DNA from: Candidatus Iainarchaeum sp.
GTDB taxonomy: Archaea > B1Sed10-29 > WALL01 > JAGHAM01
DNA: 64,000 nucleotides
Direction of reading: 5' to 3'
Assembly: GCA_021161465.1 (NCBI GenBank)
Contig: JAGHAM010000023.1
Span: 8,895-72,894 of the forward strand
The notes beneath the pieces were generated by a model that searched no databases, had not been told where the DNA came from, and saw nothing but the letters and a program-made list of their open reading frames with translations. The position numbers and the translations under genes are program-made. Positions 8,982-39,879 of this stretch are shown here, piece by piece. How positions within the stretch are numbered: the first letter of the stretch is position 1; the number at the start of each line of letters is the position of its first letter.

Positions 8982-9033
8982 GCTTAGATATACTAACAAA
9001 GAATATATAAAACTAAGCGTATTTGCATGGAAC

Positions 9034-9612
9034 TCATCTTCCCAATAAACCGCGTTCAACTAACTTTTCATGAATAGAGGACACTCCAACATACCAGAAC
9101 CAATAGAAGCCAACCAGCACAACCAGCAGAGTCAGCCTGAAAAACAGCGAGTGCAGGAAAACCATGACTGGAGCTCCAAACCATACGCCAGATGCTAAGG
9201 TCAGGGCAATCCTAATAGGGTTGATTAAAAGCACGAACAAGAAACCAGCAATAGCGCCTACAAACCGGTTTCTCCAGCTCCTGTCCTCGGTTGCCAGTAT
9301 AGCTCCAATCAAAATTGCCAGCTCTAAATCACCAACGCAGAGTGGTAGGATCTCCACAGGTAAAGCGAAAACTCCTGTGAGCGTTGGTGGGTTGGTGCAA
9401 AATGCAGTAGTTGATACACCAAACAAAATCAAAACCCAACTTGTTAAAACAGCAGTAACCCACTCAAATTCGTGCATGAACTGCGAAACTATGAAGTAGC
9501 AAGTCAAACCAAAAACGGATAGAAGAACTAAAAAACGCGCGCCCTTCAGAAGCTCCTGCTTGTTGAAAAGTTTAATGGAAGCTTTCTTAGTACGAGGCGA
9601 ATTCGACACCAT
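9034..9612 (-). CDS. small polytopic membrane protein, candidate exosortase/archaeosortase-like
   Basis: 192 aa, about 6 TM helices. Cys92 lies inside a TM helix (EILPLCVGDLELAIL), followed by conserved-looking Arg residues (R111/R114/R116, R134, R159). The Cys-Arg spacing resembles the exosortase/archaeosortase family. Lies immediately upstream of the large protein with a tripartite C-terminus. Confidence 0.3.
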   Translation of the reverse strand: MVSNSPRTKKASIKLFNKQELLKGARFLVLLSVFGLTCYFIVSQFMHEFEWVTAVLTSWVLILFGVSTTAFCTNPPTLTGVFALPVEILPLCVGDLELAILIGAILATEDRSWRNRFVGAIAGFLFVLLINPIRIALTLASGVWFGAPVMVFLHSLFFRLTLLVVLVGFYWFWYVGVSSIHEKLVERGLLGR

Positions 9613-9644: not shown

Positions 9645-11870
9645 ATGCGTGCATGGGTACCTATTGCAATTCTTTTGCTTATCGCTGCAGGTAGCGTTCT
9701 GGTTCTCAACGAAGTTTTTAGTCCAAATCCAACCGGGCTTGCTGGGCTTTACCTTGGAGGCGACACTCACCAAGGGGAAGTAAACATAACCGCCAGAGTG
9801 ATCAAAGATACAAGTGAACCCCTAATCAATGCAAGAGTTGATGGGGATAATATAATAATCACAGTATGTGACCCAGAACTTCCAGATGGTTTTCCAGGTG
9901 TTGGAATTGGACCAAACCCGGATATAACGGTATACATAGATGGCAATAAGATAGAAAACTTAGTGCTTGGTGAAGATGAACAAGAGTACATCATATATGA
10001 TTTTGTTGAATATCTCTCCACTATGAATCAACATAGCTTGATGGTCACGGTTTCAGATTCACTTGGAAATGAAAGAAGCATAACCGGTTCAATAAAAGAA
10101 AAATCGGGATACAGGAAACATACATTTTATGAGAGCTCAGGAAGCATATACGACTCATTAATGACGACGAATGAAGAACTCATTATTAGGACACATAAAA
10201 AACTAAAAGCTGATAAGATTGCGCTTTGTGTTGGTAGATCATATCTCCATATCCCCGTTCTCTCTTGTGATGATAAGAGTTACGTCAGAGCATACGTGGA
10301 TAAAGGTAATAACGAATGGATTAGAGTAGACTCTCCATTCAGTAGATTATGTTGCTGTCCAGATCTCAAGTGCGGATGCGCATTCGACCCTGGGACTTAT
10401 TTTGGATGGGTCTATCCTAAATGCAACACCTTTGATTATGCTGGCAATGTAACAGGATTTAAGGCATCTGTGAAAACTGGAATATTCCAATCAGACCCAG
10501 GTATCTGGTATTTTAAGGCTGTGGTCCTCTCTAAAGGATATGAAATCACAGGATTTGACAAAGATCTTTCAACCTGTGGAGGCCATTTTAAAGGACTTTT
10601 AGAATGCAAAGAAAAAAATGAAGGCGATTCATGCTCTGATGGGAGGGGTATCTGCTGCAATGGAGAATGTATTACTCCAGACTGCTCATCAGACAGTGAC
10701 TGCGGAACCAGTGATGAATGTACAACTTATGAATGTATGAACCCCGGAACGTGTGAAGCAAAATGTGAAAAGATTGTTGAGGATGATTGTGAAAACTGTG
10801 CCAAATCAGGGGAAGACTGTTCTAATGATATGCCATGTTGCATCTCGTCTGGGTTAACCTGTTGTGATAGCGGTCCAAATGCTGGGAAGTGTATGACCGA
10901 TTGTGGTGGAACTACTGGAACCCACACTTGCTGGAAGTGCGATGGAACCACTGCAAAAAGTATCTCTTGCTCAGCTAGTGATTCTTGTGGAACAGGTGAT
11001 TGCAGTGGTTATTCTCTCAGTTCAAGACCTACATGTGGAACTGACGAGCCTACATGTGAAATAGTAACCAGCGGAAATCCAGATGATGATATAGGTCTAT
11101 GGCTTGAAGACTGGCACTTTGCCAAATATTCAGAGGCAACTGCTGATAAGACAAGGGGGGAGTTCCAGGTTGTAGCATCCGCACCTTCTGGTAAAACCTT
11201 AGATAGAATCGCTTGCACAAGGGAGGGTGGGTTAGCAGATTTACTCCCCATAACTAAATCTGTTTCAGGACAGACAGCAACAGCAAATTTCAATGTGTGG
11301 GAAGTTGTTGGGGATGACTTCAGTGGTGAGGATAATATAGTCTGTCAGGTGTATACCTCAGATGATAGTCGGGGTATCTGCACCTCTCCACAAAAGGTGA
11401 AATTCACCCAATTTGACGATTGTAAACTGAATTATGCTATACCTGACCAGAGTTGTGTTGTTGAGATTTCAAAAGATATATCTGATATTGACTCCTCTCT
11501 ATCGGAAATAGAATTGAAGAGGTTCCATGCTCAGATCAAATCCTGCAGTTCTCATGAGGAGTATAACTGCCATGAGAGATTTTATTTAGGGTATTCGGGC
11601 TCTGAAACTAAATATTGCGATGGAGAATACGCAACACACATTAGTATGGGACTTTCGATATGTGATTGGTATCACAAGTACGGGCCAGACCACTACGGTT
11701 TCAAACCTATGCGGGTAGATTCATTTAAATGGTACAATAGTTGCCAGGTGTATACCTATGGACATGATTGGGTTGATCTTTATTTGAACTTAGATGGTTG
11801 CCAAGATTATGACGGATGGTCGGATGAAAGCAAATGTGACTTCTATAAGGCAAACGATTGTGCGACCTAG
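9645..11870 (+). CDS. secreted cysteine-rich protein (hypothetical)
   Basis: 741 aa. Signal-anchor N-terminus (MRAWVPIAILLLIAAGSVLVLNEVF). A central block is extremely Cys-rich (CSDGRGICCNGECITPDCSSDSDCGTSDECTTYECMNPGTCEAKCEKIVEDDCENC...). A TTTTTATAC box sits about 20 nt upstream of the ATG. Confidence 0.6.
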   Translation: MRAWVPIAILLLIAAGSVLVLNEVFSPNPTGLAGLYLGGDTHQGEVNITARVIKDTSEPLINARVDGDNIIITVCDPELPDGFPGVGIGPNPDITVYIDGNKIENLVLGEDEQEYIIYDFVEYLSTMNQHSLMVTVSDSLGNERSITGSIKEKSGYRKHTFYESSGSIYDSLMTTNEELIIRTHKKLKADKIALCVGRSYLHIPVLSCDDKSYVRAYVDKGNNEWIRVDSPFSRLCCCPDLKCGCAFDPGTYFGWVYPKCNTFDYAGNVTGFKASVKTGIFQSDPGIWYFKAVVLSKGYEITGFDKDLSTCGGHFKGLLECKEKNEGDSCSDGRGICCNGECITPDCSSDSDCGTSDECTTYECMNPGTCEAKCEKIVEDDCENCAKSGEDCSNDMPCCISSGLTCCDSGPNAGKCMTDCGGTTGTHTCWKCDGTTAKSISCSASDSCGTGDCSGYSLSSRPTCGTDEPTCEIVTSGNPDDDIGLWLEDWHFAKYSEATADKTRGEFQVVASAPSGKTLDRIACTREGGLADLLPITKSVSGQTATANFNVWEVVGDDFSGEDNIVCQVYTSDDSRGICTSPQKVKFTQFDDCKLNYAIPDQSCVVEISKDISDIDSSLSEIELKRFHAQIKSCSSHEEYNCHERFYLGYSGSETKYCDGEYATHISMGLSICDWYHKYGPDHYGFKPMRVDSFKWYNSCQVYTYGHDWVDLYLNLDGCQDYDGWSDESKCDFYKANDCAT

Positions 11871-11914: not shown

Positions 11915-14200
11915 ATGGCTAGTGGTAAGGTTAAAGTTGTAACCAAGGGCGGAAAGCGCTACCTGACTATTGATTGCAGCGGCTCGCCTTACGGGCCAAG
12001 TATTGCTGATTATCCCCAGAGAATGGCCCAGGTCATTGAGGCTCTCACTGTAAACGACGTTGATGGAATCGTCCTAGCTGATGTTTACGAGCGCGTCTAT
12101 GACGAGAGGCAAACGCGCATGTTGAAGGAAATCGCGCGACTGGTTGTGAAGTTCAAGAAAGCTGGTGTCTGGGCACCTTCGATGCTTGGTGGGAATGCCT
12201 GCTCCAGGTTCATATCTAAAAGAAAGGGCCTTATGGTTGATATTGCAAGCAATCTGCTGCGCACTGACCCGATAAGGGCTTACATAAAGTGCCTGCAAGC
12301 CATAGATATGGAAAAAGCAAAACTTGAGATAATCCAGCCACCTTACAAGAAGTGCACCCAGAAGTACATGGAGACTCTTGAATTCGTCAGGGCCAACCTT
12401 GAAGCCACCGAGCTGATACAAAAGCTCAGAAATTATATAAAGAAGCTCAAAAGCATACCGCCAGGAAGAGGGTTTTACAGAAGCATACTCGAAGCACAGC
12501 TGAAGCCATCTTTCATAGGCTCAAGGCTTATATTTGACCTGCCGGAGGAGATAGAGCTCCTGGACCAGTATGCAGTAGGGGACACCAAAGTCAGCATCTA
12601 CAAGCACCCCGAGAGGGTGGAGGCTTTATACATACTGGACCCGCCCGAATACTCACTAACCCCTGAACAATATTTCCTTATGTCCAAAACCAAGGAGATA
12701 GTCAGTGGGTATCACCCAGAAGGCCTGGAATTCACAGACCTTGCAACCAACAAAGGCTACTTCAGAAAGATTTATGAAACAACTATAGCAGACCTAGCAA
12801 ATGAAAACAACATAACTGCAACCCCTGAAGAAATCGCAGAACTGGCAAGAATAGTTGTAAGATACACAATTGGCTTTGGAATGATGGGTGTTTTGCTCTC
12901 AGACGAGAAACTAACTGATGTTTACATGGATGCCCCATTAGGGTACAGACCTGTGTATGTAGTACACTCCGATCACGGGCTGTGTGAAACCAATATAATC
13001 TTCTCAGAAGAGGAAGCAGAAGGTATTATATCCCGCTTCAGGTCGATGAGTGGGAGGCCATTTGACGAAGCACACCCAATCATGGACTTCGACCTGGCTG
13101 AATACCACGCCAGAACTGCAACCATAGGGAGGCCACTTTCACCTGATGGTATTGGGTTCGCCCTGAGGATACACAAGTCTACCCCATGGACGCTCCCACA
13201 GTTCATAGACGTTAAAATGCTTACGCCAGAAGTGGCAGGGCTGCTTTCCTTCCTGATTGACTCACAAGCCTCAACACTTGTGGTCGGTAGCAGGGGCGCT
13301 GGCAAAACTTCAATGCTGATGGCCCTCATGCTGGAAATCCTGCGTTCGCAAAGAATCATAACTATAGAGGATACGTTAGAGCTGCCGGTTGACCACATGA
13401 GAAGTATAGGGTTTAAGGTATGCAGACTTAAAACAAGGTCAGCAATATCTGTTGGCCAGGTCACGGCAGAGGTCAGCCCAGAGGATGCACTCAGAACAGC
13501 ACTCCGTCTTGGTGAGTCAGTGTTGATAGTTGGCGAAGTTAGAAGTAAGGAAGCCTTAGTGCTTTACGAAGCCATGCGCGTTGGCGCGATTGGAAACGTC
13601 GTCATGGGCACCATCCACGGAGAGAACGCTTACTCTGTTTGGGATAGGGTTGTAAATGACCTTGGGGTACCAAACACATCATTCAAGGCAACAGATATGT
13701 GTGTCACATGCGCGCCCATCAGGTTCAAAGGTTCACTAAAACGGGATAGAAGGCTAATTGAGGTCACAGAGATAGGTAAAGATTGGTATGAAGACCCAAA
13801 GAAAGAAGGCGGGCTAATCGACCTGGTAACCTACGATGCTGGCACTGACACGCATAAGATACATAAGGACAACATACTTAATAACTCGCATTTCTTTAAG
13901 CGGACCGTCAAACTAAGAGGCCTTGATATGGAAGAGATATGGAACGACATAGTGTACAGAGGGAAGGTAAAGGCTACATTGGTTGATTTCAAGAACAAGT
14001 ACAACCTCCCCGAGCTGCTTGAGTCTGAAAACACAGTGGAAGCAAATGATATGTATCTGCTTATGCAGGAGAGGAGCAGGCAGGAGGTTGGCGCTGTTGA
14101 ATACGCAAAGGTCTTTGACAAGTGGAAGAAATGGGTTGGGGAAACCATGGTGAAAGGCTTGCTGGCAAGGAGGAAGAGCAGTGAGGAAGCAAAAGGATAA
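11915..14200 (+). CDS. type IV pilus/archaellum-type secretion ATPase (FlaI/TadA/VirB11 superfamily) with a long N-terminal extension
   Basis: Walker A VVGSRGAGKTSMLMAL, Asp box IITIEDTLEL, Walker B/His box GEVRSKEALVLYEAMRVGAIGNVVMGTIHGEN. At 761 aa it is roughly 200 aa longer than typical FlaI. A TATAAATA box sits about 25 nt upstream. Confidence 0.85.
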   Translation: MASGKVKVVTKGGKRYLTIDCSGSPYGPSIADYPQRMAQVIEALTVNDVDGIVLADVYERVYDERQTRMLKEIARLVVKFKKAGVWAPSMLGGNACSRFISKRKGLMVDIASNLLRTDPIRAYIKCLQAIDMEKAKLEIIQPPYKKCTQKYMETLEFVRANLEATELIQKLRNYIKKLKSIPPGRGFYRSILEAQLKPSFIGSRLIFDLPEEIELLDQYAVGDTKVSIYKHPERVEALYILDPPEYSLTPEQYFLMSKTKEIVSGYHPEGLEFTDLATNKGYFRKIYETTIADLANENNITATPEEIAELARIVVRYTIGFGMMGVLLSDEKLTDVYMDAPLGYRPVYVVHSDHGLCETNIIFSEEEAEGIISRFRSMSGRPFDEAHPIMDFDLAEYHARTATIGRPLSPDGIGFALRIHKSTPWTLPQFIDVKMLTPEVAGLLSFLIDSQASTLVVGSRGAGKTSMLMALMLEILRSQRIITIEDTLELPVDHMRSIGFKVCRLKTRSAISVGQVTAEVSPEDALRTALRLGESVLIVGEVRSKEALVLYEAMRVGAIGNVVMGTIHGENAYSVWDRVVNDLGVPNTSFKATDMCVTCAPIRFKGSLKRDRRLIEVTEIGKDWYEDPKKEGGLIDLVTYDAGTDTHKIHKDNILNNSHFFKRTVKLRGLDMEEIWNDIVYRGKVKATLVDFKNKYNLPELLESENTVEANDMYLLMQERSRQEVGAVEYAKVFDKWKKWVGETMVKGLLARRKSSEEAKG

Positions 14201-16271
14201 GTTCCTGGATGCCATGTACAGCGATGGCGAGGAGCTGGCAGCCGAGAAACCAAAGGAACCGCTCTACATTAAGTTCTGCAAGTACTCATACAAATACTTT
14301 GGGAAGAACGCTAAAAAAGAGCTTACAGAAAAATACAAAGTTGCACTTGCATTCCTGGACTGGGACATAGAGCCACAAGAACTTAACTCCGCACCACTAT
14401 TTGCAATGACCATTGGCATCATGCTTTCTTTTTTATGGGCACTGCTAAATTATGTGTTTTACAATTTCTTTAGGCCTATAGAACTTGGCGGGGCAACCCT
14501 GATAGGATACGCGCCTGAACTTGGTTTACCACTAATGATTTACTTGCTCCCATTTGCAGGAGCGCTTGGGCTGGGATACTACATACAGGCTTACCCCTTG
14601 AAAGCTGCTGAGAAGGAAAAGATAAAGTCCCTCAGATACATACCGGAGATAGTGAACTACATTGTGATGTCCATGAAGGTCTCACCGAATCTGGAGAGAG
14701 CTATCCGGTTTGCTGCCGAGCATGGGCATGGCAGGATTGCGAAAGATTTCAGAAAGCTGCACTATGATATACAAATAGGCAAATACAAAACCGTGGAAGA
14801 AGCTTTGGACTACCTGGCGTGGAAGTGGGGAGAGTATTCAGAAGAATTCAAGCATGCTCTAATGCTCATCCGCTCATCTGTGATGGAAATTGATGAGGGC
14901 AAGAGGAATAACTTATTGGATAAGGCTGTTGAGGATACACTAGCTGGAGTCAAAGACAAGATGGATATGTACTCACGAGCTATGCACCAGCCATCGATAT
15001 ACCTCTACTATTTTGGGGTGCTCTTGCCTCTCCTGCTGGTAATAATCATCCCAGTTGGGTCAATGATGGCAGCAGACACTATGGGCTTCCTTGCAACCCC
15101 TGCTGCCATGATTTTGATGTATAACATAGCGATACCCGCAGTGTCCCTACTGCTTGCGAAATCGATACTTGAGAAAAAGCCCCCCACCCGACCAGTGCCG
15201 AAGATTCCTGATAACCTGCCTGGCTTACCAAAAAAGGGCTGGTTTAGTATAGGCAGTTACCAGCTTCCAATAGGTCTTATAAGCCTTGGTATACTGGCTT
15301 CGCTTGTCATAGCTGGCTTCGCGCTTGAGCCAGTCCTAAACCCAAAGCCGCCTGCGTACATGACTGCTGGAAGAGATGTTGAACACCTGCCAATAGTGGA
15401 GTACGCCGGAATTGCACTTGGCTTTGTCTGGGCAGCCTCATTTTACATCTGGGCAAGCAACAAGGATAAGAGGAAAGCCCAGCTGGAGCTGATTAGGATG
15501 GAAGACGAGTTCCAGGACACCCTCTACGTTTTAGCCTCCCGACTTGGTGAGGGAAAACCAATGGAAGAAGCCTTAAAGCACTCGGCTGAGTTCCTGCCAA
15601 ACTCGCCAACAACTAAGAAGATATTCATACCGACACTTCAGAACGTAACTGTGATGGGAATGACCTTAAAGATGGCCCTTTTTGACAAGGCCTATGGCTC
15701 GCTGAAATATATTCCATCGGATTTTATCAGAGGGACCATGAGAATAGTGGTTGAATCGCTGACTCTTGGTGTACAGACAGCAGCGCGTTCACTGGTTTCA
15801 CTTTCGCTCCAGTTGCAGGACTCGCAAAAGGTGGAAAGGTCATTAAGGGCCTTGCTTGAAGATATCACAAGCATGATGAGCATTATGAGCACTTTGATTG
15901 CACCTGTAGTGCTTGGGATTACCATAGCCTTGCAGAAAGTTATTTACAGCGCGCTTGGTAGTGCTGCAGGGAACAGCGCGTTAAAGAATATAAACACGGC
16001 GGGCATACCAGGCGTGGGTATGGTCTCACCAATGTTGAACATGAACATGGGGGCAAAACTCCCAGCCATAGACCAAACAATGCTCCTGGCAATAATAACA
16101 ATATACATGATTGAGATAGTCCTAGTCCTTATCTACTTCGCATCCAGCGTCACTGAGGGTGACAACAAGCTGGCTTTCAAGATAAACGCAAGCATTGCAT
16201 TGCCAATATCACTAACAATATTCTTTGCAATAGCCTTCTTCGCCACCAAACTAATTCCAGCAGGGATCTGA
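14181..16271 (+). CDS. FlaJ/TadC-like polytopic membrane platform protein of the type IV pilus system
   Basis: 696 aa. Alternating cytoplasmic domains and TM blocks. GTG start preceded by AAGGAGGAAG. The start overlaps the end of the ATPase gene by 20 nt (translational coupling). Its position directly after the ATPase is the canonical arrangement. Confidence 0.7.
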   Translation: MRKQKDKFLDAMYSDGEELAAEKPKEPLYIKFCKYSYKYFGKNAKKELTEKYKVALAFLDWDIEPQELNSAPLFAMTIGIMLSFLWALLNYVFYNFFRPIELGGATLIGYAPELGLPLMIYLLPFAGALGLGYYIQAYPLKAAEKEKIKSLRYIPEIVNYIVMSMKVSPNLERAIRFAAEHGHGRIAKDFRKLHYDIQIGKYKTVEEALDYLAWKWGEYSEEFKHALMLIRSSVMEIDEGKRNNLLDKAVEDTLAGVKDKMDMYSRAMHQPSIYLYYFGVLLPLLLVIIIPVGSMMAADTMGFLATPAAMILMYNIAIPAVSLLLAKSILEKKPPTRPVPKIPDNLPGLPKKGWFSIGSYQLPIGLISLGILASLVIAGFALEPVLNPKPPAYMTAGRDVEHLPIVEYAGIALGFVWAASFYIWASNKDKRKAQLELIRMEDEFQDTLYVLASRLGEGKPMEEALKHSAEFLPNSPTTKKIFIPTLQNVTVMGMTLKMALFDKAYGSLKYIPSDFIRGTMRIVVESLTLGVQTAARSLVSLSLQLQDSQKVERSLRALLEDITSMMSIMSTLIAPVVLGITIALQKVIYSALGSAAGNSALKNINTAGIPGVGMVSPMLNMNMGAKLPAIDQTMLLAIITIYMIEIVLVLIYFASSVTEGDNKLAFKINASIALPISLTIFFAIAFFATKLIPAGI

Positions 16272-16757
16272 ATGCAAAAGGGGCAGTACTACGCAGTGAT
16301 GAAACTACTCCAGGCTGCCGTGTTCGCTGCGGTGCTGATGCTAGTTGCTTGGGGCATAATCAGCTATATCGAAAGCTACATGGCAGGCACTGATGTCCGA
16401 AGTGTCTCCGTTGAAGTTCTTAAGAGTGCCTATGTGTCAAGGGATGCAAACCAGTCATTTACTCGAGAGGCCAAGCTTATGGGGCAAGGCTTCAGTAATG
16501 AATCCCTGAGGAATTCAGCAGGCATACCTAAAGGGACCATAATAAGAATTTTCTGTAACGAAAGCTTCTGTGAAAATCCATGCCATTACTATAGCGATAA
16601 GTCCCACTGGAACAACCATTGTGGCGACCAAGTAACACTAAAGAAAGGCGGGAAGATAAAAGTATGTGCCTCATGCAAAACATATGGAACAACAGTTAAA
16701 ACAGTTAAGTGCGGGCTCTTCCTAGATGCAGATACTTGCAACATTTACATGCCCTGA
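16272..16757 (+). CDS. pilin-like protein with class III signal peptide
   Basis: N-terminus MQKGQYYAVMKLLQAAVFAAVLMLVAWGII has a KG|Q prepilin-peptidase-type cleavage context followed by a hydrophobic helix. Cys-rich C-terminal domain. ATG directly abuts the platform gene stop. Confidence 0.55.
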   Translation: MQKGQYYAVMKLLQAAVFAAVLMLVAWGIISYIESYMAGTDVRSVSVEVLKSAYVSRDANQSFTREAKLMGQGFSNESLRNSAGIPKGTIIRIFCNESFCENPCHYYSDKSHWNNHCGDQVTLKKGGKIKVCASCKTYGTTVKTVKCGLFLDADTCNIYMP

Positions 16758-16782
16758 TTGACTCGCGACTAGAACAGTAAAC

Positions 16783-16791
16783 TATTTAAAT
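16783..16791 (+). promoter_or_regulatory. TATA-box-like element (TATTTAAAT) upstream of pilin gene 16823
   Basis: About 31 nt upstream of the ATG. The same box is duplicated at 17498..17506 upstream of the paralogous pilin 17540. Confidence 0.4.
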
Positions 16792-16822
16792 ACCAATAAT
16801 GTAGTTTTGAGTAGGTGATTTC

Positions 16823-17296
16823 ATGCTAAATGAGAGAGGTCAAGCGTTTGATGCGTTTAAGCTGCTGATAGCTGCAGTGGTTGCTGGTGCAATACTTGTT
16901 ATAATATTAGGTATGCTTCAGGGTTTCATAATACCTGTTGGACAGCCTATGAGTGTTATGACTCAGGGCATATCAACTACCTCAAAAGCCGCTGGCTCTG
17001 GAACAGTTTCTCCACAAGCAGTTAAGTTTGTAAAGGGAGATATACTTTCAACTGATGGCGTAGCCGACCAGGCTGGCGTAAACAAAAATAGAGTCTGCTT
17101 TTGCAATAGCACAACAATAGATGGTGCTAAAGCCTGCCCAGCAGGATATGTATTTGATAATGGTACATACTTCACAGTCCTTGGAAAATGTGGAGGTACC
17201 ACTGGTATGAGCATAGAAGCATTAGAGGACATTAATGGAAAGATAAGGGTATACAACAAGGAAGGGACTTTTTACATAGGTTTCAAACCAAGTTAG
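16823..17296 (+). CDS. type IV pilin-like protein (class III signal peptide), paralog A1
   Basis: MLNERGQAFDAFKLLIAAVVAGAILVIILGML has an RG|Q cleavage motif plus a hydrophobic stretch. GGTGA SD-like motif upstream, and an upstream TATTTAAAT box. Confidence 0.7.
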   Translation: MLNERGQAFDAFKLLIAAVVAGAILVIILGMLQGFIIPVGQPMSVMTQGISTTSKAAGSGTVSPQAVKFVKGDILSTDGVADQAGVNKNRVCFCNSTTIDGAKACPAGYVFDNGTYFTVLGKCGGTTGMSIEALEDINGKIRVYNKEGTFYIGFKPS

Positions 17297-17313
17297 GTTT
17301 AGAAGGTAAATAG

Positions 17314-17442
17314 ATGAACACCAAGGGAGATGTGAACTGGACACCAATATACCTGCTGATACTGGCAGCAATAGCCTTAATCCTGATAGTAAGCGTTATA
17401 AAGCCAATGTTCCAAGCGGCTGCTGGAAACATAAGCTTCTAA
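17314..17442 (+). CDS. 42-aa pilin-like mini-ORF (MNTKGDVNWTPIYLLILAAIALILIVSVIKPMFQAAAGNISF)
   Basis: Not in the supplied ORF track (under 60 aa). Has a KG motif followed by a single hydrophobic helix. Sits between two pilin genes. Confidence 0.3.
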   Translation: MNTKGDVNWTPIYLLILAAIALILIVSVIKPMFQAAAGNISF

Positions 17443-17539
17443 GGTACATGGAGCGTTGCAACCTGCGCCCAACTGCAAGTGGTTGGTAAAAGTAAAGTAT
17501 TTAAATGAAAACATTGTTATTTGCTCTAGAGGAGTTAGT

Positions 17540-17998
17540 ATGTTAAACGAGAGAGGTCAGGCGTTTGATGCGTTTAAGCTACTGATAGCTGCAGTGGTTG
17601 CAGCAGCTATACTTGCTGTTATTTATGCTATAATCATCCAAGTCCAGCCACCATTTCAACAAGCCGCACAAACAATAACAAAAGGTATCTCATCTGAGAA
17701 TATTGCTGGTGCTGGCTCATATTATGGAGATGGAAAAGTTAAGTTCAATAAAGGTAGGGTGCTATCTTCAAGTGGTCTCGCTGGAGCAGTCGGTATAAAT
17801 GAGAAGAATGTTTGTTTTTGCACTTCCACCAATCCGCCAGAGTGCCCAAGTGACTCTATATTCACGGAACCTGATTTTACAGTAACAGGAACATGTGGAA
17901 ATGGACAAACACTAAAAGCAAACGAAGAAGTATATGGTAATGTGTGGATATACAGAAACAATGACAACAGGTACATGATTGGTTTCCAGAAAAGTTGA
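17540..17998 (+). CDS. type IV pilin-like protein (class III signal peptide), paralog A2
   Basis: The ATG at 17540 gives MLNERGQAFDAFKLLIAAVVAAAIL..., whose first about 25 residues (and about 90% of their nucleotides) match the 16823 gene. GGAG SD upstream and a TATTTAAAT box about 33 nt upstream. The ORF-track start at 17456 is probably too long. Confidence 0.7.
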   Translation: MLNERGQAFDAFKLLIAAVVAAAILAVIYAIIIQVQPPFQQAAQTITKGISSENIAGAGSYYGDGKVKFNKGRVLSSSGLAGAVGINEKNVCFCTSTNPPECPSDSIFTEPDFTVTGTCGNGQTLKANEEVYGNVWIYRNNDNRYMIGFQKS

Positions 17999-18037
17999 TG
18001 ATAAACATTTATAGCCTAGTTGTTCGTTATTTTGAGT

Positions 18038-18592
18038 ATGGTGAGCTTTAAGTCTGGGCAAAGAGGTCAAGAAAGCGCGCCTTTTAATTTAATCATAGCG
18101 GGAGTTATGATTACTTTCACGATAGTAGTGCTAGGCCACTTATTGGTGAATTCAAATACTACCTTCTGCGTGGAAAAGATGCAAAGCAACGCGCAAAGCT
18201 TGGCTAGGGAGATTGAGAAAACAGCCCAGTACTCAAGGAACAACACAGAGCTCACAGTTAACCTCAATTTCCCATCATGTGGTGACATACAAATAGACAA
18301 CTTCACAATCAAAGACTCTGACCCCATACACTGCGTTAAGTACTGCCATGCCAGTAGCTGCATGCTTATGACCATAAATGGTTACACCGGTGGGAGTGCT
18401 ACCACAGTAACAGAGCCCATTTGTATAAAGGTTCCGACCAACACCACCATAAATACCACAGGATGCCAGTCGTTATTTGGAGCAGGATACAAAGATATAC
18501 CAGATAGAGCATTCAAGCCCAAAGTCTACCAGCTGTCATTGATAAAGACTATAAGCGGTGAAACCACTATACACATCTGTGACGTTGGATAG
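18038..18592 (+). CDS. pilin-like protein (class III signal peptide), paralog B1
   Basis: MVSFKSGQRGQESAPFNLIIAGVMITFTIVVL has an RG|Q motif. The C-terminal domain shares the CVKYCHASSCMLMTINGYTGG...EPICIKVP motif with the 18716 gene. Confidence 0.6.
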   Translation: MVSFKSGQRGQESAPFNLIIAGVMITFTIVVLGHLLVNSNTTFCVEKMQSNAQSLAREIEKTAQYSRNNTELTVNLNFPSCGDIQIDNFTIKDSDPIHCVKYCHASSCMLMTINGYTGGSATTVTEPICIKVPTNTTINTTGCQSLFGAGYKDIPDRAFKPKVYQLSLIKTISGETTIHICDVG

Positions 18593-18715
18593 AGATTTAA
18601 CGACATACTGCTTTCTCACGTGACTAAACTTGGCCTCACCGGGTGACCCGAACAGGTTTGGATATGACTTCAAAATTTCAAAACTTTTATAACCTAGTTC
18701 CCCGTTATTTCTGTG

Positions 18716-19267
18716 ATGAAAGCCAGGGCTGCTGGGACAAAAGGCCAAGAGGAAGCACCGTTTGCACTGTTCCTTGCAGTGGCGATGCTAGCACTGCTGC
18801 TGCCAATAGCCGCTGAGCTTTACAAGAACGCCAGCACTGCCGTCTGTGAAGAGCAGATACAAAGCAGTATGGAAACTCTGGCAAGAGATATTGAGATAGG
18901 AACAGCACTCCCAGGAAACAACACAGTCTTCAATGTTGATTTCGGATTTTTCTCGTGTGGCAACTGGATTATCAGCAACTTCACTCTTAAATCACCAGGC
19001 TCCGAAGAATGTGTCCGCAGCTGTCAAACTGCCAATTGTATGATGGTCAGAGGCAATGGATACGTTGGAGAGGAACCAACTGTGATTGGCGAACCAGTTT
19101 GTGTAAGGCTTCCTTTAGACGTAAATCTTAGAACCAGTGGTTGTACTGGTTTTGGTTACACTGGGCTACCCTCCAATACATTCAACACCACCAAATATAC
19201 GCTGGTCTTGGTGAAAAAAGAACACGGTGGCCTGACTGACTTACATCTCTGCAATTACAATAGCTAG
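18716..19267 (+). CDS. pilin-like protein (class III signal peptide), paralog B2
   Basis: MKARAAGTKGQEEAPFALFLAVAMLALLL has a KG|Q motif. The C-terminus (CVRSCQTANCMMVRGNGYVGE...EPVCVRLP) is paralogous to the 18038 gene. The upstream region (TTTTATAACCTAGTTCCCCGTTATTT) is also duplicated from the 18038 upstream. Confidence 0.6.
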   Translation: MKARAAGTKGQEEAPFALFLAVAMLALLLPIAAELYKNASTAVCEEQIQSSMETLARDIEIGTALPGNNTVFNVDFGFFSCGNWIISNFTLKSPGSEECVRSCQTANCMMVRGNGYVGEEPTVIGEPVCVRLPLDVNLRTSGCTGFGYTGLPSNTFNTTKYTLVLVKKEHGGLTDLHLCNYNS

Positions 19268-19275
19268 GTGGATAT

Positions 19276-19950
19276 ATGCAACTAAAAAAGAAACGCCTTG
19301 GGAATAAAGGCTTGGGTATGTGGGTGATGTCCAAGACAGTACTTTTCATCTTTCTTTTGCTGCTTGTAGCGGTACTAAGTGGCTTCTTAAACATTTACCA
19401 GAAAAAAGTTATTGAAGACAGCGCGCGCAGTGTGATAATGCTCTGGGCTGAGTCCGCCAACTCCGTCGCGCAATTCCCTTCAGGAAGCGCTATCTGGCCA
19501 CTGCAACAACAGGTTATTATAAAGAGCGCCGGAAGAAAAGTCTCGGTAGCCAAGGATTACACAACTGGTATAGTTGCTCTGGATAGCCCAGATGGAAAGC
19601 GATTGGTGTTTATGCTTGCATGGGGGGACCATAATGAAACTAAAATTGAGGATATTCCTGAATACGCGACTGCTGTTTCCACCGGCCTGCCGCTGGACAT
19701 AACTAATGTATATTTCTTCAATGGTTCAACCACCCCTGGAGATCCACCAACATATCTGCAATATGCTGGGAATCCTAAAGAGGAAATTATAGTTAGACCA
19801 TCAATAGGTGGCACAAGGGATGCATATATAGTATTTTATAGGAATCAAACAACATTCTGCATTGGAACCATAAAGCAAACTGAAACTGACTTAAAAACAG
19901 CTGTTGGGAACATAGCAACATGCTGTAATGCTCCATCATCATGTCCATGA
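19276..19950 (+). CDS. pilin-like protein with charged N-region and hydrophobic helix
   Basis: MQLKKKRLGNKGLGMWVMSKTVLFIFLLLLVAVLSGF. AGGTGG SD-like motif upstream. Alternative start at ATG 19318. Confidence 0.5.
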   Translation: MQLKKKRLGNKGLGMWVMSKTVLFIFLLLLVAVLSGFLNIYQKKVIEDSARSVIMLWAESANSVAQFPSGSAIWPLQQQVIIKSAGRKVSVAKDYTTGIVALDSPDGKRLVFMLAWGDHNETKIEDIPEYATAVSTGLPLDITNVYFFNGSTTPGDPPTYLQYAGNPKEEIIVRPSIGGTRDAYIVFYRNQTTFCIGTIKQTETDLKTAVGNIATCCNAPSSCP

Positions 19951-19959
19951 GGTAGAGAT

Positions 19960-20475
19960 ATGAGAAAAGGATATATTGGTCCATTGGGGGATGATTTCCC
20001 TGCACTGCTACCAATAGCACTAGGGCTGCTGATGTTCTTCAGTGCCATATCGCTTGCTTATGCAATCCATGACGCAAAAAGTACAACTGTAAATCTTATG
20101 AGAGCTAATGTAATGATTTCAAGGTCAATCAGAGAAGATGTGCATTTCACAAGAGAATACTGGACTGGTGAAGCCTGCTCAAAAATGAATAATACTGCAG
20201 TGAATTATGGTGTTAAGGTTGCAATGAGGATAGTGATGAGTAATTATACCTATTACAGTACCACAGGTTCCAGTTCAATAGAGATTCCATCAAACAAAAC
20301 CGAAGATTCCGTCATGCTTGTCAACTCGAGCGGAGGAAGTAGGGCTGTCTGCCCGTTAGGTGCCCAGTGGGAGGATTACGTACCAGCAAGTGGCTTAGCT
20401 ATGAGCTACCCTGTAGTTGTTGATTCACAAGGACAGATATTACCAGCAACGTTGGTGGTGGTAACATGGCAGTAA
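19960..20475 (+). CDS. pilin-like protein (class III-like signal)
   Basis: MRKGYIGPLGDDFPALLPIALGLLMFFSAISLAYAI. GAGGT SD upstream. Confidence 0.45.
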   Translation: MRKGYIGPLGDDFPALLPIALGLLMFFSAISLAYAIHDAKSTTVNLMRANVMISRSIREDVHFTREYWTGEACSKMNNTAVNYGVKVAMRIVMSNYTYYSTTGSSSIEIPSNKTEDSVMLVNSSGGSRAVCPLGAQWEDYVPASGLAMSYPVVVDSQGQILPATLVVVTWQ

Positions 20476-21029
20476 AGGCACAGGCCGTAATCATTGATGC
20501 GTTCCTCCTGTTCATACTTTGCTCTTTTGCTGCAACTTTCCTTCTCTGGGCATCAAGTGTCTATGGGAACAAATCGCTAAGGGCCTACACTTACTTATAT
20601 GAGGGAGAATATGAAACAAGCCTGATAAATGTTCTCTCTGAGATGAAATACAACGTTAGCGATGTGCCAAGACATTGGATAGATGAAGTTGGGTATTATA
20701 TGAATGGAGAATTTGATGAAAGCAGCGATAGATACACCAACATGACAAAGTATTGGGATATCATATGCCTTCAGGCCCCTGTCCCATTGCAGCTTGAAGT
20801 CGTTACCAATACCAAAAATCCAAGTCATTCGAAAATGATTTTCAATTGTTCCCTTGACCCAACCAGGCTAGATAGGGAAAGAATAAACGAAAGTGTACAG
20901 GATTACATGACAAGAGATTGCAACCCTCCTGGAATTTGTAGACCTCCGCCGCCTTATTACTCCTCTGGGTCTGAAACTCGGTTATGCGGCGACCTAGTTT
21001 GCAAGATGGAGGCAAAGATTTATTATTAA
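20466..21029 (+). CDS. pilin-like protein (class III-like signal)
   Basis: MAVKAQAVIIDAFLLFILCSFAATFLLWASSVYG. GGTGGTGG SD upstream. Overlaps the previous gene by 10 nt. Confidence 0.45.
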   Translation: MAVKAQAVIIDAFLLFILCSFAATFLLWASSVYGNKSLRAYTYLYEGEYETSLINVLSEMKYNVSDVPRHWIDEVGYYMNGEFDESSDRYTNMTKYWDIICLQAPVPLQLEVVTNTKNPSHSKMIFNCSLDPTRLDRERINESVQDYMTRDCNPPGICRPPPPYYSSGSETRLCGDLVCKMEAKIYY

Positions 21030-21049
21030 GTTAAGTGTGAGAGAATACA

Positions 21050-21490
21050 ATGCTAATAGAGTCCTATTTAACTGCACTGCTCCTTTGTACTTCCTATGGA
21101 AAGCCAGCTTGTATGGGTGTCCTATCATTCATAACCTCCCTAATTGTTTTCGCGTTTGTAGCGCTAACCACACTATTTTTCAGGAGAAAAAACAAAGAAG
21201 CAAACTGGTTTGCTAAACTTATGTTAACGATAGTCTATTTCACTATAGTATGGATAGCCATATGCATATATTATGGAACAAGCCCCATGGAAGGTTTATC
21301 AATACCATTGAAATATGGATTTGGTGTGTTCTTTTTATTCGTCCTGCCGTTCTCATGGGTGTATAAAAAGCTGATGAACAAGTATCCTATGCTCCCATGG
21401 CATTTCGTCCAGTACCTATGTTGCCTGGTTGCCAGCCTAATCTTTTGGGCTGCCGTAATTTTCTACTTTGGTATCTTCTCACTCGTATGA
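21050..21490 (+). CDS. hypothetical 4-TM membrane protein within the pilus cluster
   Basis: 146 aa with four hydrophobic helices. No D..GGD-type prepilin peptidase motif recognised. Confidence 0.4.
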   Translation: MLIESYLTALLLCTSYGKPACMGVLSFITSLIVFAFVALTTLFFRRKNKEANWFAKLMLTIVYFTIVWIAICIYYGTSPMEGLSIPLKYGFGVFFLFVLPFSWVYKKLMNKYPMLPWHFVQYLCCLVASLIFWAAVIFYFGIFSLV

Positions 21491-21523
21491 AAGCTTAAAA
21501 AGGATTAGCGAGTAAGGTGATTT

Positions 21524-23590
21524 ATGCACAGAGGATTCAGTGTTTTCACACCAATGGTTGGAGTTATAGTAATCACTATAACTATCCTTCTGGTCGCTGC
21601 AATTCTTCAAGATGAAAGAGTGGTTACTGCTGGCACTCTGCAAACATATCAGAACATACGAATCGCCAATATAATGAGGGATGTACAGGGTAGAGTGTCG
21701 GAAAGTATAAGGATAAGTATGTTTGAGAATTGGGTTGAACAAACTACAGCCGAGATAAAAACAGACAACTGTTTTAATGACTCCCTGGCAAATAATTATG
21801 ACAGTGGTCTGAAGGAATGCAAAGCTAGTCTACTTAATGAAACTAAGAATGACATCAAAACCATTATGAAGGATGCCCTAAAAGGAAGTGTCATATCAGA
21901 TACTATCGATAGGATGAGCTATGATTATAAGGACGCCAAGATAACAGGCATATCCATCTCAGATATCAACAATGTAGTAGGGGAAACCAAATTCGTAGAT
22001 TGTGAATCCCCTGAGGACTGCAATGATGGTAGAATCAAAGTCACTATAAATTTTTCAAAGTTAGAAGGCAAACCAGTTGCAACCATAGAAACCAACACAA
22101 GCACAATAAATGTCTACATGCCACCAGGGGAGTCAACATTCATAACAGACGATCCAGTAGGCATCTATGCTATAAAAATAGGGGAATTCTTTGGAAATTT
22201 CACGCTAATGGACAAAACATGGCATGGTGCGGGCAACAGCATAACTAGGACCATAGGACCAAGTGATAGATGCGATTATAATGGAGAGGACACACCATAT
22301 GGTGCAATACCTCTAGATAAAAATAATGAGTGTAGAGGTTACGGGAACGGCAGCCAGTGGTACCACTACAAATATGTGTTCCAAAGAAGAGAACCGCAGA
22401 ACTTAACAGAAGATGGGGGTAGTGGTTATGTCACCACTGGATGGAAGAGTGGGTTTAACTTCTCTGATAACGGGAACCGACCAATTAGGTTGAGTGAGAA
22501 AATCTATGAGCTTGTAAAGGGGTGGTTGGACACACATATCACAATTAGTATGAGTGGTTGGGAAAACTGCCTTGACCTGTTCAGCAAAGCACACCTTAGA
22601 GAGGTCAGCTACAATATATGTGGTGATTTTGATTGTCTTGAGAACTATTTCATCTCAGGTTATATAAGAGGGAAGAAGCTTGCCTACAATGAGAGTGGAT
22701 ACGGTTATCCGGGGTACGCAGCAAACCTCAAGCTAAACCAGTTAGTATACAGAAAGGGAGACCCAACTGCCCTTGCTAGTGAACAATATGCGTTGCCTGG
22801 CGGGCATGCTCATAAAGATACACCTAGCGAGTACATCAACATCAGAGGTAAGAAAAACGCCTTAATCGATGACCCTAGTTACCAAAGCATAATCTCGCAA
22901 GAACCTGACAACACAATCTTAGAAAATACCACCAACTATTTTGATGAAAGATTCTTTAAGGATAACTCATATTCTGATGGGCCACTCGAAGACTTGGTTG
23001 GGAAAATAAAAGAATCTTCCAGAGATTATGCTTCCTCTATGGGGTTCTATTCAGAGGAACCAAGATATAATTTAACCGTTGAAAGCTGGCAATATTATGT
23101 CCACAAGGATATCTCTGGTGGTGATAACTGGTATTGCGGTGAGTTTGTAGGATGGTATATACCTAGCTTTGCTGGAGGTTCTTATACTGCGACTGAAGCA
23201 CTTGATAAGTTCGGTGATCACGCAATGTTCTTCTCATTGCCCATGAATTTCACCTGCAATACATACACCTTAGTGGCGGTTAAGGAGGATTATAAGTTAC
23301 TCAGGAACACAGAGGCACATCCAGATGATATAAACAAAACAGTTTTCCATGCAGTCTTAGAACGGGTGAAAACAGATTATTCAGAAGGCACGAGTGAGGT
23401 GGCACTATGGAAAGGTAGTGGTATCACCGAATTCGATAGAAGGTGGCTCAGACCAACAATAAAAGACATCTCAGATATGCAATCAGATATGCCCTCAGAA
23501 AAACTAAGCATAAGGCACTGCATATACTCATATAAGGAAGGGACTGGAGGGAACGAAGAGTGTTACTGGATAGGGCAGAAACCAATATGA
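21524..23590 (+). CDS. large pilin-like/pilus-associated protein (688 aa) with class III-like signal
   Basis: MHRGFSVFTPMVGVIVITITILLVAAIL has an RG|F cleavage context. AGGTGA SD upstream. Large extracellular domain with many N-x-S/T sequons. Candidate tip adhesin or minor pilin. Confidence 0.5.
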   Translation: MHRGFSVFTPMVGVIVITITILLVAAILQDERVVTAGTLQTYQNIRIANIMRDVQGRVSESIRISMFENWVEQTTAEIKTDNCFNDSLANNYDSGLKECKASLLNETKNDIKTIMKDALKGSVISDTIDRMSYDYKDAKITGISISDINNVVGETKFVDCESPEDCNDGRIKVTINFSKLEGKPVATIETNTSTINVYMPPGESTFITDDPVGIYAIKIGEFFGNFTLMDKTWHGAGNSITRTIGPSDRCDYNGEDTPYGAIPLDKNNECRGYGNGSQWYHYKYVFQRREPQNLTEDGGSGYVTTGWKSGFNFSDNGNRPIRLSEKIYELVKGWLDTHITISMSGWENCLDLFSKAHLREVSYNICGDFDCLENYFISGYIRGKKLAYNESGYGYPGYAANLKLNQLVYRKGDPTALASEQYALPGGHAHKDTPSEYINIRGKKNALIDDPSYQSIISQEPDNTILENTTNYFDERFFKDNSYSDGPLEDLVGKIKESSRDYASSMGFYSEEPRYNLTVESWQYYVHKDISGGDNWYCGEFVGWYIPSFAGGSYTATEALDKFGDHAMFFSLPMNFTCNTYTLVAVKEDYKLLRNTEAHPDDINKTVFHAVLERVKTDYSEGTSEVALWKGSGITEFDRRWLRPTIKDISDMQSDMPSEKLSIRHCIYSYKEGTGGNEECYWIGQKPI

Positions 23591-38848: not shown

Positions 38849-39175
38849 ATGAACCTTGGATTCCTTGGTGACATAAAAAACACCATAGACCTGTTATTCC
38901 TTGGATTTAAGGTCGTAGTTCTTGTATTCCTTGTAGGATGGGTTAGGGGCCACCTGGGCGGAGGGATAATCGCAACAGTTGCCATACTCATCATTGGATG
39001 GCTTGTGCTCTTCAAATACTTCTATTTATTTGGGCCAATGGCAGTAATTTACCTGATATTGATAGTTGGAGGTAGTGGTGTTATAATGGATATAGCCTTT
39101 GGTAGGTCCATGTACCTCGAGGAACCATACATAGGAAAGGATTTGATGGATGGAAGGAGGCCCCCACCAATATGA
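38849..39175 (+). CDS. small membrane protein (3 TM), array member 1
   Basis: 108 aa, very hydrophobic. A TTTTTTATATTTTT box sits about 25 nt upstream of the ATG. Confidence 0.45.
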   Translation: MNLGFLGDIKNTIDLLFLGFKVVVLVFLVGWVRGHLGGGIIATVAILIIGWLVLFKYFYLFGPMAVIYLILIVGGSGVIMDIAFGRSMYLEEPYIGKDLMDGRRPPPI

Positions 39176-39548
39176 AGGTGAAAACTTGAGAACAAGTGAG
39201 ATAAAACTAAACAAGAAAGGTTTTCTCCCGCTTATAGCTGGGATTCCAACAGCCTTGATAGTTTTGATAGTGGTAATACTCCTACTGGTGCTAAGCCCTG
39301 CTATCCTTATGCAAATTCGTGAAATAAAGCTGCTTTTCCAGATATTCGCTGCGATAATCATTCTCTCATGGGTCAGAAACACCGTTGGCCCTGGGATGGT
39401 ATCAATCCTGATAAGCTTAATCCTGATATATATCTTCGTCCTTATGGTCCCCGAACTTCTCGGCGCGATATGGGCAATGTACATCCTGTTGACATTCGGC
39501 TTGTGGTCAATGATATTCTGGGGTCTGCCTTTGATTTTCAGGAAGTGA
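39150..39548 (+). CDS. small membrane protein (about 4 TM), array member 2
   Basis: 132 aa. Overlaps the previous gene by 26 nt. The alternative internal start is uncertain. Confidence 0.4.
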   Translation: MEGGPHQYEGENLRTSEIKLNKKGFLPLIAGIPTALIVLIVVILLLVLSPAILMQIREIKLLFQIFAAIIILSWVRNTVGPGMVSILISLILIYIFVLMVPELLGAIWAMYILLTFGLWSMIFWGLPLIFRK

Positions 39549-39878: not shown

Positions 39879-39879
39879 A

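Follow-up and report, generated by a model that had tools for sequence, protein, structure and literature searches.

Little is understood of the way in which DPANN archaea attach to their hosts and exploit them. As of 2016, no pilins could be assigned to the secretion ATPases of these ('nanoarchaeal') lineages (PMC4858521). Which filament, if any, is encoded by a DPANN locus in which a secretion ATPase is followed by a long run of genes with prepilin-like N-termini? We analysed such a locus in a 64,000-nucleotide (nt) stretch of Candidatus Iainarchaeum DNA (assembly GCA_021161465.1, contig JAGHAM010000023.1, positions 8,895–72,894; hereafter the window), within which positions 11915–23590 had been described, in an initial annotation made from the letters alone, as a type IV pilus-like locus. 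An open reading frame (ORF) listing with translation confirmed the ORFs at the positions given there. Two of the window's proteins were 100% identical to NCBI entries J7L23_03250 (p157 below) and J7L23_03290, both annotated 'hypothetical protein'; the source is a Candidatus Diapherotrites metagenome-assembled genome. We conclude that the region is probably the central part of a cluster for building type IV filaments (pili), one that is specific to Iainarchaeota (Diapherotrites) and Micrarchaeota and serves attachment to surfaces or host cells.

A secretion ATPase and its platform partner head the cluster

The cluster forms a co-directional plus-strand series composed of an ORF at 9645–11870, a secretion ATPase gene (11915–14200), a platform gene (14181–16271), eleven ORFs (16272–23590) and two genes for giant proteins. 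The ATPase (761 amino acids (aa)) is of the FlaI/TadA/GspE type. Its Pfam match was T2SSE (6e-21); in NCBIfam it matched the models for FlaI (2.7e-40) and TadA (5e-40), in both cases under the equivalog cut-off, and its closest structures in the PDB were those of Archaeoglobus GspE (afGspE, 2oap; 1e-31), CpaF (5e-24) and FlaI (1e-21). All four catalytic motifs are intact: Walker A (residues 458–466), Asp box (481–490), Walker B (536–543) and His box (565–571). The protein carries extra regions of about 290 aa at the N-terminus, for which the PDB search returned no match, and about 120 aa at the C-terminus.

The platform protein (696 aa, about nine transmembrane (TM) segments) is a single-gene member of the FlaJ/TadC/T2SSF family. 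Its homologues at E<1e-130 carry PF00482, and the full-length ones, which often do so, share 34–68% identity with it, at E values down to 0. When 25 full-length homologues were scanned one by one, 18 matched T2SSF (PF00482; best E 4.5e-10). Alignment with hhalign placed residues 164–334 of the platform-family profile on a 183-aa T2SSF protein encoded just upstream of the window (E 2e-5, probability 76%); the same comparison with the neighbouring 265-aa split-platform protein was negative, and a search of the PDB with the platform profile yielded nothing useful. Because the homologues match T2SSF and the profile aligns with a T2SSF protein, we accept the window protein as a divergent platform of the FlaJ/TadC type. 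The pairing of a FlaI/TadA ATPase with a FlaJ/TadC platform, as initially annotated, is therefore borne out for the ATPase by its own profile matches and for the platform by family membership, not by the window copy alone.

The two genes had also been called translationally coupled. The 3′ end of the ATPase gene and the start of the platform gene share 20 nt, the platform start is a GTG at 14181 with an AGGAGG sequence 8–13 nt upstream, and an overlap of 20–35 nt was kept in relatives, as judged from gene-caller starts. These features are consistent with the predicted coupling.

Basic leaders, cleavage motifs and helices define ten pilin-like proteins

Ten of the eleven ORFs after the platform gene have a class III (prepilin) N-terminus; the remaining one, m146 (21050–21490), encodes a protein with five TM segments. 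The initial count of ten pilin-like genes thus stands, whereas their description as consecutive does not, since eleven ORFs follow the platform and m146 interrupts the run. Each of the ten N-termini consists of a short basic segment, [KR][GA], a +1 residue specific to the family and a hydrophobic helix. The pattern first proposed, [KR]G followed by Q, F or Y, holds for most of them; in p187 (20466–21029) the site is K-A|Q, although the relatives of p187 have KRG|Q. Internal ATG starts (17540, 18038 and 18716) had to be chosen for three of the genes in place of the longest ORF.

The ten genes represent eight families and two old duplications (p157/p152 and p183/p184). Positions −2, −1 and +1 were near-invariant among relatives in Iainarchaeota and Micrarchaeota, and the motif was kept in all eight families. 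The p161 site was uniform in 13 relatives, with K/R at −2, G at −1 and Q at +1 in 13/13 each. Pooling p183 and p184 gave 30 relatives, all with K/R at −2 and Q at +1, and with G (25), A (3) or S (2) at −1. For p171, all 32 relatives had K/R at −2, with G in 30 and A in 2 at −1 and F (17), Y (13) or A (2) at +1. The p688 site had K/R at −2 and F at +1 in 12/12 relatives (−1: G in 11, A in 1), the p187 site had G in 12 and A in 5 of 17 relatives at −1 and Q in 17/17 at +1, and the p224 site had G at −1 in 18/18. Beyond the motif, residues 1–25 of the predicted mature proteins were 1.6–3.4 times better conserved than the remainder of each protein.

In proteins with a cleaved Sec signal, it is generally the signal that is least conserved. 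A best-conserved N-terminus is the reverse of this and is characteristic of type IV pilins. The signals were also concentrated at the locus: a lax class III rule was satisfied by 9/10 in-locus ORFs and by 5/52 ORFs elsewhere in the window (Fisher p = 9e-7), and p42 escaped the rule solely through the filtering of overlapping ORFs. A positive charge at −2 has been described as specific to substrates of archaeal signal peptidase (SPase) III (PMC3387779).

In every family the best-conserved elements were K/R at −2, G/A at −1, and the +1 residue with its helix; in this the N-termini behave as class III signals rather than SPase I-type Sec signals. The initial annotation had named two outcomes that would speak against it: ATPase and platform ORFs outside the expected families, and downstream N-termini that are ordinary Sec signals. 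We checked both; the families matched, and the N-termini were class III-like, not Sec-like. The locus combines three of the parts that characterise the type IV filament (TFF) superfamily, namely a hexameric-type secretion ATPase with all four motifs, an adjacent polytopic platform (by family) and class III substrates, represented by ten ORFs in eight families for which cleavage is predicted.

The cluster is syntenic across Iainarchaeota and Micrarchaeota

Related loci were collected with a platform-family profile scan of one genome per species. A platform relative was encoded in 156 species genomes, of which the best 80 were retrieved; they include Candidatus Iainarchaeum, Micrarchaeota, Norongarragalinales (an order of Micrarchaeia) and one genome labelled Thaumarchaeota. 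Synteny was kept across genomes of Iainarchaeota and Micrarchaeota. In the closest relatives (loci L001, L004, L008 and L013), the minus strand carries, in order, a giant gene, p688 and m192, and the plus strand carries up741 (not in all), ATPase, platform, p161, p157, p42, p152 (not in all), p183, p224, p171, p187, m146, g1544 and a deoxyhypusine synthase gene. The window has the deoxyhypusine synthase gene, g1544 and m192 on the minus strand, and up741 through m146 followed by p688 and the giants on the plus strand.

The layout of the relatives becomes that of the window through one inversion, which spans m192 to m146 (3449–23590 compared with L004 and L001). This inversion, which the relatives lack, explains why p688 is part of the pilin run in the window and why g1544 and deoxyhypusine synthase lie upstream and p688 and the giants downstream, the opposite of the arrangement in relatives. 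The conserved neighbourhood is consequently wider than 11915–23590, as it also takes in m192, g1544 and giants with a common N-terminal domain.

Reading by eye, we saw TATA-like boxes (TTTATA, TATAAATA or TTTAAATA) about 30 nt before the ATGs of up741, the ATPase gene, p184, p183 and g2219, at about 9615, 11885, 18008, 18686 and 31715. The box 30 nt upstream of the ATPase ATG is TATAAATA, and TTTATA lies 30 nt upstream of the ATG of p184 and likewise of p183. This spacing suggests several leaderless transcription units. The remaining pilin-like genes have GGTG-type Shine–Dalgarno motifs 9–12 nt before the start.

A candidate major pilin and a diverse accompanying set

The leading candidate for a major pilin is p157 (16823–17296; MLNERG|QAFDAFKLLIAAVVA...). 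It is the pilin-like family found in most loci, with BLASTP matches at E≤1e-3 in 49. In an alignment of 47 sequences, G6, Q7, A8, F12 to V19, A21, I24 and L25 were invariant, and almost all invariant columns fell within residues 6–25. The AlphaFold2 model of p157 (predicted local distance difference test (pLDDT) 90.3) has a 29-residue N-terminal helix (residues 5–33) that is continuous with a compact alpha/beta head. The head had no significant fold match among PDB structures, and a search of the PDB with the p157 profile likewise returned nothing useful. Its paralogue p152 (17540–17998; MLNERG|Q) shares 43% identity with p157, the first 21 residues being identical; of the closest relatives, L001 has it, whereas L004, L008 and L013 do not.

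Between p157 and p183, in a position that is syntenic among relatives, lies p42 (17314–17442; MNTKG|DVNWTPIYLLILAAIA..., with D at +1), preceded by a Shine–Dalgarno-like AAGGT 10 nt upstream. This 42-aa protein would leave a mature product of 37 aa that is essentially one helix, and it is the best conserved of the pilin-like families (median identity 64% over 29 loci).

The other members, all on the plus strand, are p161 (16272–16757; MQKG|QYYAV..., 8 Cys), p184 (18038–18592; ..GQRG|QESAPF..), its paralogue p183 at 36% identity (18716–19267; ..GTKG|QEEAPFALF.., 8 Cys), p224 (19276–19950; ..GNKG|LGMWVMSK..), p171 (19960–20475; MRKG|YIGPLGDDFPA..), p187 (MAVKA|QAVIIDAF.., with A replacing G at −1) and p688 (21524–23590; MHRG|FSVFTPMVG..). 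The last has 13 Cys and 13 NxS/T sequons, and ectodomains rich in Cys and N-x-S/T sequons are a feature of the pilin-like set. In relatives p688 is divergently encoded, beside the archaeosortase and giant genes, and it is a candidate pilin-fused adhesin or tip protein.

The set had been presented as unusually large. We counted class III-like ORFs behind the platform gene in 41 related loci for which 7 kb or more of downstream sequence was available: the counts ran from 0 to 10, with a median of 5, so that the window holds the maximum; its excess is due to the two duplications and the inversion. There are two pilins in the Ups and two in the Aap locus, a few archaellins in archaella, six pilins in bacterial type IVa pili (T4aP) and five in type II secretion systems (T2SS). 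The claim thus holds against Ups, Aap and archaellum loci and fails against bacterial T4aP and clade-1/Epd sets, to which the window's set is comparable in size; the latter loci encode at least 5 minor pilins in addition to major pilins and adhesins (PMC4858521). Ten pilin-like genes is at the high end, not unprecedented.

An envelope module and giant surface proteins adjoin the pilin run

On the minus strand beside the cluster lies m192 (9034–9612), which encodes a mini exosortase/archaeosortase-family protein of 192 aa with seven TM segments. It scored 37.7 bits against the NCBIfam signature TIGR04178 (cut-off 23) and reached no named archaeosortase subfamily in NCBIfam (paceosortase, 22 bits against an 80-bit cut-off). 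Residues C92, E97, N131, R134 and H154 were invariant in the window copy and 28 homologues, and a homologue was present in 31 related loci. The protein thus has the exosortase/archaeosortase signature with its Cys, Arg and His, and a candidate substrate is encoded nearby. This is g1544 (4425–9059, minus strand; probable start 8981), a large envelope protein of 1544 aa with an ordinary SPase I-type signal (MNSPRW...AVMA|QENN) and a tripartite C-terminus made of VPIRPAD, a TM segment and KKKKR. The C-terminal pattern, (V/I/L)P-x-x-P-(E/A) followed by a TM segment and a K/R tail, is kept in g1544 homologues. In relatives the gene lies after m146, at the end of the pilin operon, and many relatives keep the m192–g1544 pair within the pilus neighbourhood. 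From its sequence and setting, g1544 is a likely archaeosortase substrate of m192.

Both giant genes directly follow p688 on the plus strand, in keeping with the contiguity noted at the outset, and the N-terminal domain of their products is found beside the locus in about 20 relatives. The first, g2677 (23642–31669; in the ORF listing 23636–31669, 2677 aa), comprises that N-terminal domain, one TM segment and a large ectodomain of Ig-like repeats, and the second, g2219 (31745–38404; 2219 aa), is a paralogue (24% identity) with the same N-terminal domain. Pfam assigned CarboxypepD_reg, SdrD_B and SpaA Ig-like domains to the ectodomains. The N-terminal domain (23642–23860 and 31745–31969) spans about 45 aa, reads Y.KIEDK[YW][YF]..LD.L[DE].KG[IV]P[VI]Y..[IV]DP[IL]E..GIP[ST][LF]P and is followed by the TM helix; the domain is presumably cytoplasmic. 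The N-terminal 75 aa of g2219 matched 548 protein clusters in a library of 1.84 billion proteins, almost always at residues 1–65 of proteins that are mostly 1500–3100 aa long. To judge by these matches, giant surface proteins of DPANN archaea seem to have in this domain a module dedicated to anchoring or docking.

Two further conserved or adjoining genes flank the machine. The pilin run of the closest relatives always ends with the gene for the 5-TM protein m146, which has conserved E4, G17, P86, Y105 and an LPWH motif at 115–118 (8 sequences, the window copy and 7 relatives), and had no match in Pfam, NCBIfam or PHROGs; we regard it as a putative accessory component. Directly upstream of the ATPase gene, up741 (9645–11870, plus strand) encodes a 741-aa protein with 50 Cys and an N-terminal TM segment or signal that is not a conserved class III motif. 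Only weak homologues (25–30% identity) occupy its position in L001 and L004, and it is a putative fast-evolving surface protein. A PHROGs scan of p688, m146, up741 and the HerA-like protein described next gave no match.

Downstream of the giants, at 38849–41749 (plus strand), are genes for seven small membrane proteins (108–144 aa, 1–5 predicted TM segments), three of which (40173–41318) are detectably paralogous. A similar array follows the giant gene in locus L049. After the array come a Cys-rich, C-terminally anchored protein of 217 aa (41758–42411) and a 470-aa protein (42989–44401) with a sub-threshold HerA/DUF87 match (21.2 bits against 23.2), for which a PDB search found nothing useful. 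The array and the genes after it may be a further module of the system, or may be unrelated to it.

About 28 kb downstream of the pilin-like genes, at 51404–59388, are glycosylation genes: two for polytopic glycosyltransferases resembling PMT_2/Glyco_transf_22, one for a family-2 glycosyltransferase and one for an LPG_synthase_TM protein. They may have a bearing on the giant and pilin-like proteins, which are rich in sequons. A transfer-messenger RNA called by ARAGORN at 63464–63803 (plus strand) is almost certainly a false positive, as the window is archaeal and no Rfam model matched there at the gathering threshold.

A model for assembly and the evidence that weighs against it

We propose that a FlaK/PibD-type peptidase encoded elsewhere in the genome would cut after [KR][GA] and remove the basic leader, whereupon the ATPase and platform would draw the mature subunits out of the membrane and join them into a polymer by way of their N-terminal helices. 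The shaft would most probably be built of p157/p152, which we prefer because the family is in most loci, has a near-invariant helix and is duplicated. The 37-aa, helix-only p42 is a less likely alternative, suggested by its being the best-conserved family and by its resemblance to the headless Epd and Flp pilins. In this scheme p161, p183/p184, p224, p171 and p187 could form a minor-pilin priming or tip set, p688 could act as a pilin-fused adhesin, and m192 with g1544 would be an envelope-anchoring module coupled genetically to the pilus cluster. The giants would be adhesins, and their N-terminal domain could touch either the platform or the extended ATPase. By analogy, we infer that the system most likely serves adhesion or attachment to a host.

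Several results weigh against this reading. None of the ten pilin-like proteins matched a family in Pfam or NCBIfam at E≤0.1, the archaeal pilin N-terminal and archaellin families included. The window's own platform protein likewise had no Pfam or NCBIfam match, T2SSF among them, and the AlphaFold2 model of p688, built from a 3-sequence alignment, was unusable (pLDDT 29.6). A search of the window and of 83 related loci for GxGD-type ORFs with at least four predicted TM segments was negative, so that class III processing is assumed. Lastly, a second, System-1-like core just upstream of the window, considered below, makes the assignment of the pilins to one machine less certain.

The missing peptidase had already been noted in the initial annotation, and our searches agree with it. 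In addition to the GxGD search, a Pfam scan for the A24 family was negative for 13 of the 14 membrane ORFs of the window, the ORF at 56987–58174 (minus strand, 395 aa, 3 TM segments) lying outside the scan. In the cultivated Micrarchaeon Mia14, which has two type IV pilus loci, a single FlaK-like peptidase is encoded elsewhere, far from both (PMC5498576), and a locus without a peptidase is simply explained by such an arrangement. Makarova et al. described two 'nanoarchaea' without a recognisable peptidase.

Two neighbours were considered as peptidases and set aside. A cryptic A24 prepilin peptidase would need two catalytic Asp residues, the second in GxGD, and m146 contains no Asp at all, so it cannot be one; no Asp is conserved in its alignment with 7 relatives, and it also lacks a Pfam or NCBIfam match and occurs in only 7 related loci. 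By textbook topology, class III cleavage should take place at the cytoplasmic face of the membrane. A substitute role for m192 was rejected as unlikely on account of this expected location and of g1544, a substrate with a C-terminal signal, being encoded next door.

Alternative explanations of the locus

Might the N-termini be ordinary Sec signals or anchors of unrelated secreted or membrane proteins that happen to lie beside a secretion ATPase? The lack of a peptidase and of any Pfam or NCBIfam family for these proteins would fit. We nevertheless find this scarcely credible: [KR][GA] and the next 25 or so residues are the most conserved part of every family, the hydrophobic stretch begins within a few residues of the motif with no obvious A-x-A-type site after it (judged by eye, unsystematically), the true Sec-type neighbour g1544 looks different (AVMA|QE), and the 29-residue N-terminal helix in the p157 model runs on into the head. 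A second possibility is that the machine builds only a short pseudopilus, as in a T2SS or the Sulfolobus bindosome, that would push the giants and the sortase-anchored 1544-aa protein or present them on the cell surface, in place of a long adhesive pilus. There are many pilin families of low-copy appearance and none is obviously dominant, as with the five T2SS pseudopilins; linkage to the giants is tight and conserved, their presumed cytoplasmic N-terminal domain could dock on the ATPase or platform, and a role in priming the envelope has been proposed for S-layer-like proteins encoded in TFF loci (bioRxiv 10.64898/2026.04.22.720090). Against this, the giants have their own TM anchor and g1544 a Sec signal, so that neither needs a pseudopilus for export, and p157, duplicated and with an extremely conserved helix, resembles a major pilin. 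We know of no archaeal T2SS. The cited literature, in its passages on characterised archaeal TFFs, shows no secretion role for them, and on balance we consider a dedicated pseudopilus unlikely.

The second filament core bears on whether the ten proteins serve one machine. It lies immediately before window position 1 on L084, a public contig that overlaps the start of the window and begins 2804 nt upstream of it. There, at L084:383–2791, a compact FlaI/TadA-like ATPase (359 aa; FlaI model 1.7e-55) is followed by genes for two separate T2SSF platforms of 183 and 265 aa, the larger of which matches UpsF at 4e-8. By its gene content this is a System-1-like arrangement, and it places two machines within about 12 kb of each other in this genome. 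The ten class III proteins could accordingly be split between the focal, System-2-like core and this core some 3 kb upstream, two repertoires at one site. Besides the presence of the second core itself, the resemblance of p42 to the major pilin of System 1/Epd and Tad pili, itself no more than a helix, speaks for such a split, as does the view, expressed in a passage of PMC4858521, that archaeal ATPase/TadC pairs use different pilin sets. It is made improbable by the relatives, in which all eight families, p42 included, stand in fixed order behind the focal ATPase and platform; this fixed synteny suggests that most of the pilins belong to the focal machine. A different possibility is an apparatus for exchange between cells, in which the pilus, like Ups, would draw the DPANN cell to its partner or host, and the small-membrane-protein array with the HerA-like protein (38849–44401) would work as a Ced-like DNA importer or a cytoplasmic bridge. 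It would account for the paralogous small 2-TM proteins after the giants in the window and in L049 and for the 470-aa protein with its weak HerA/DUF87 match after the array, and pili-like connections between ARMAN cells and their hosts, with a role for type IV pili in exchange, have been proposed (PMC5498576). Yet the HerA match is under the Pfam cut-off, no canonical GxxxxGK[ST] Walker A motif was seen, the linkage of the array was checked in one relative only, and no likeness to Ced proteins appeared in the libraries searched, all of which makes us very doubtful of an exchange apparatus.

A filament biogenesis cluster with an adhesive role remains our preferred reading, and a bolder version of it can be formulated. 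The whole super-cluster would then encode a dedicated organelle with which Iainarchaeota and Micrarchaeota contact and attach to their hosts, and would underlie genetically the pili-like connections seen between ARMAN-type cells and host cells, with giants and filament forming one composite structure. A System-2-like motor would be combined with eight private families of pilins, the 37-aa helix-only subunit among them, the pilin-fused 688-aa adhesin, giants docked by their N-terminal domain and a pilus-linked mini-archaeosortase with its P-E-CTERM protein. We regard this extension as speculative and would not expect it to hold in full.

Whichever role applies, the locus adds eight unannotated cross-phylum families of pilin-like proteins, a defined cleavage motif, and a pilus-linked mini-archaeosortase with a likely substrate. 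The N-terminal domain of the giants provides a recognisable marker of about 550 clusters of giant surface proteins, and the families and the domain can be used as hidden Markov models for annotation. Nothing is overturned, as type IV pilus loci of Micrarchaeota have been reported before.

Comparison with known systems

The cluster is not an archaellum locus by content: within it, no Pfam or NCBIfam match was found to archaellins, ArlH (FlaH), ArlF/G, ArlCDE or ArlX, and the ATPase scored 138.6 bits against the FlaI equivalog model, whose cut-off is 550.

Bacterial T4aP, with their minor pilins and PilY1, and T2SS pseudopilins follow the same logic, in which a major subunit is combined with about five conserved minor pilin-like proteins and a single large adhesin, and in this comparison p688 would take the role of PilY1 or of a modular pilin. 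The window's signals differ from the bacterial ones in having K/R at −2 and no conserved Glu5, the locus is without PilM–Q, a secretin or a retraction ATPase, and no likeness to the bacterial proteins in sequence or fold was detectable in the window's pilin-like proteins.

System 1, typified by the Epd pili of Methanococcus maripaludis, resembles the window locus in its complexity, with at least 5 minor pilins, large adhesins and extra membrane proteins, and its major pilin lacks a globular domain and is comparable to p42. It has, however, two platform genes and the 9-TM EppA in the locus, where the window locus has one 696-aa platform gene and no peptidase.

Archaeosortases with their partners (ArtA/PGF-CTERM, ArtD/PEF-CTERM and pacearchaeosortase) are matched by m192 in the signature, in its Cys, Arg and His residues and in the neighbouring protein with a motif, a TM segment and a basic tail. 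The differences are that m192 has only 192 aa and belongs to no named subfamily, that the motif is (V/I/L)P-x-x-P-E instead of PGF or PEF, and that the gene is embedded in a pilus locus, a setting not described in the cited literature.

The closest parallel is System 2, for which ATPases with extended N- and C-termini, a single platform gene, multiple SPase III (SPIII) pilins, membrane proteins and large adhesin-like proteins have been described (bioRxiv 10.64898/2026.04.22.720090). The locus is like this system (Makarova clade 2, to which euryarchaeal adhesion-pilus loci such as Haloferax PilB/PilC with PilA belong) in its extended ATPase, single platform, SPIII pilins, and membrane and adhesin-like proteins, and the nearest solved relative of its ATPase, Archaeoglobus GspE, belongs in the same comparison. 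A 'euryarchaeal group' type IV pilus locus has been reported in Mia14 (PMC5498576). The locus departs from System 2 in that its pilin-like proteins fall outside all Pfam families, including the archaeal pilin N-terminal family; that its eight pilin families are lineage-specific and unannotated; and that linked to it are an archaeosortase, a protein bearing a C-terminal signal, and giants that have an N-terminal anchor domain of their own. The signature pilins of System 2 (PilA family, arCOG02911) were not seen among Pfam and NCBIfam matches at E≤0.1. Membership in System 2 is not established, although on the predicted gene content it is System 2 that the architecture best fits. The cluster is a lineage-specific variant of a known machine, in which attachment is the inferred function.

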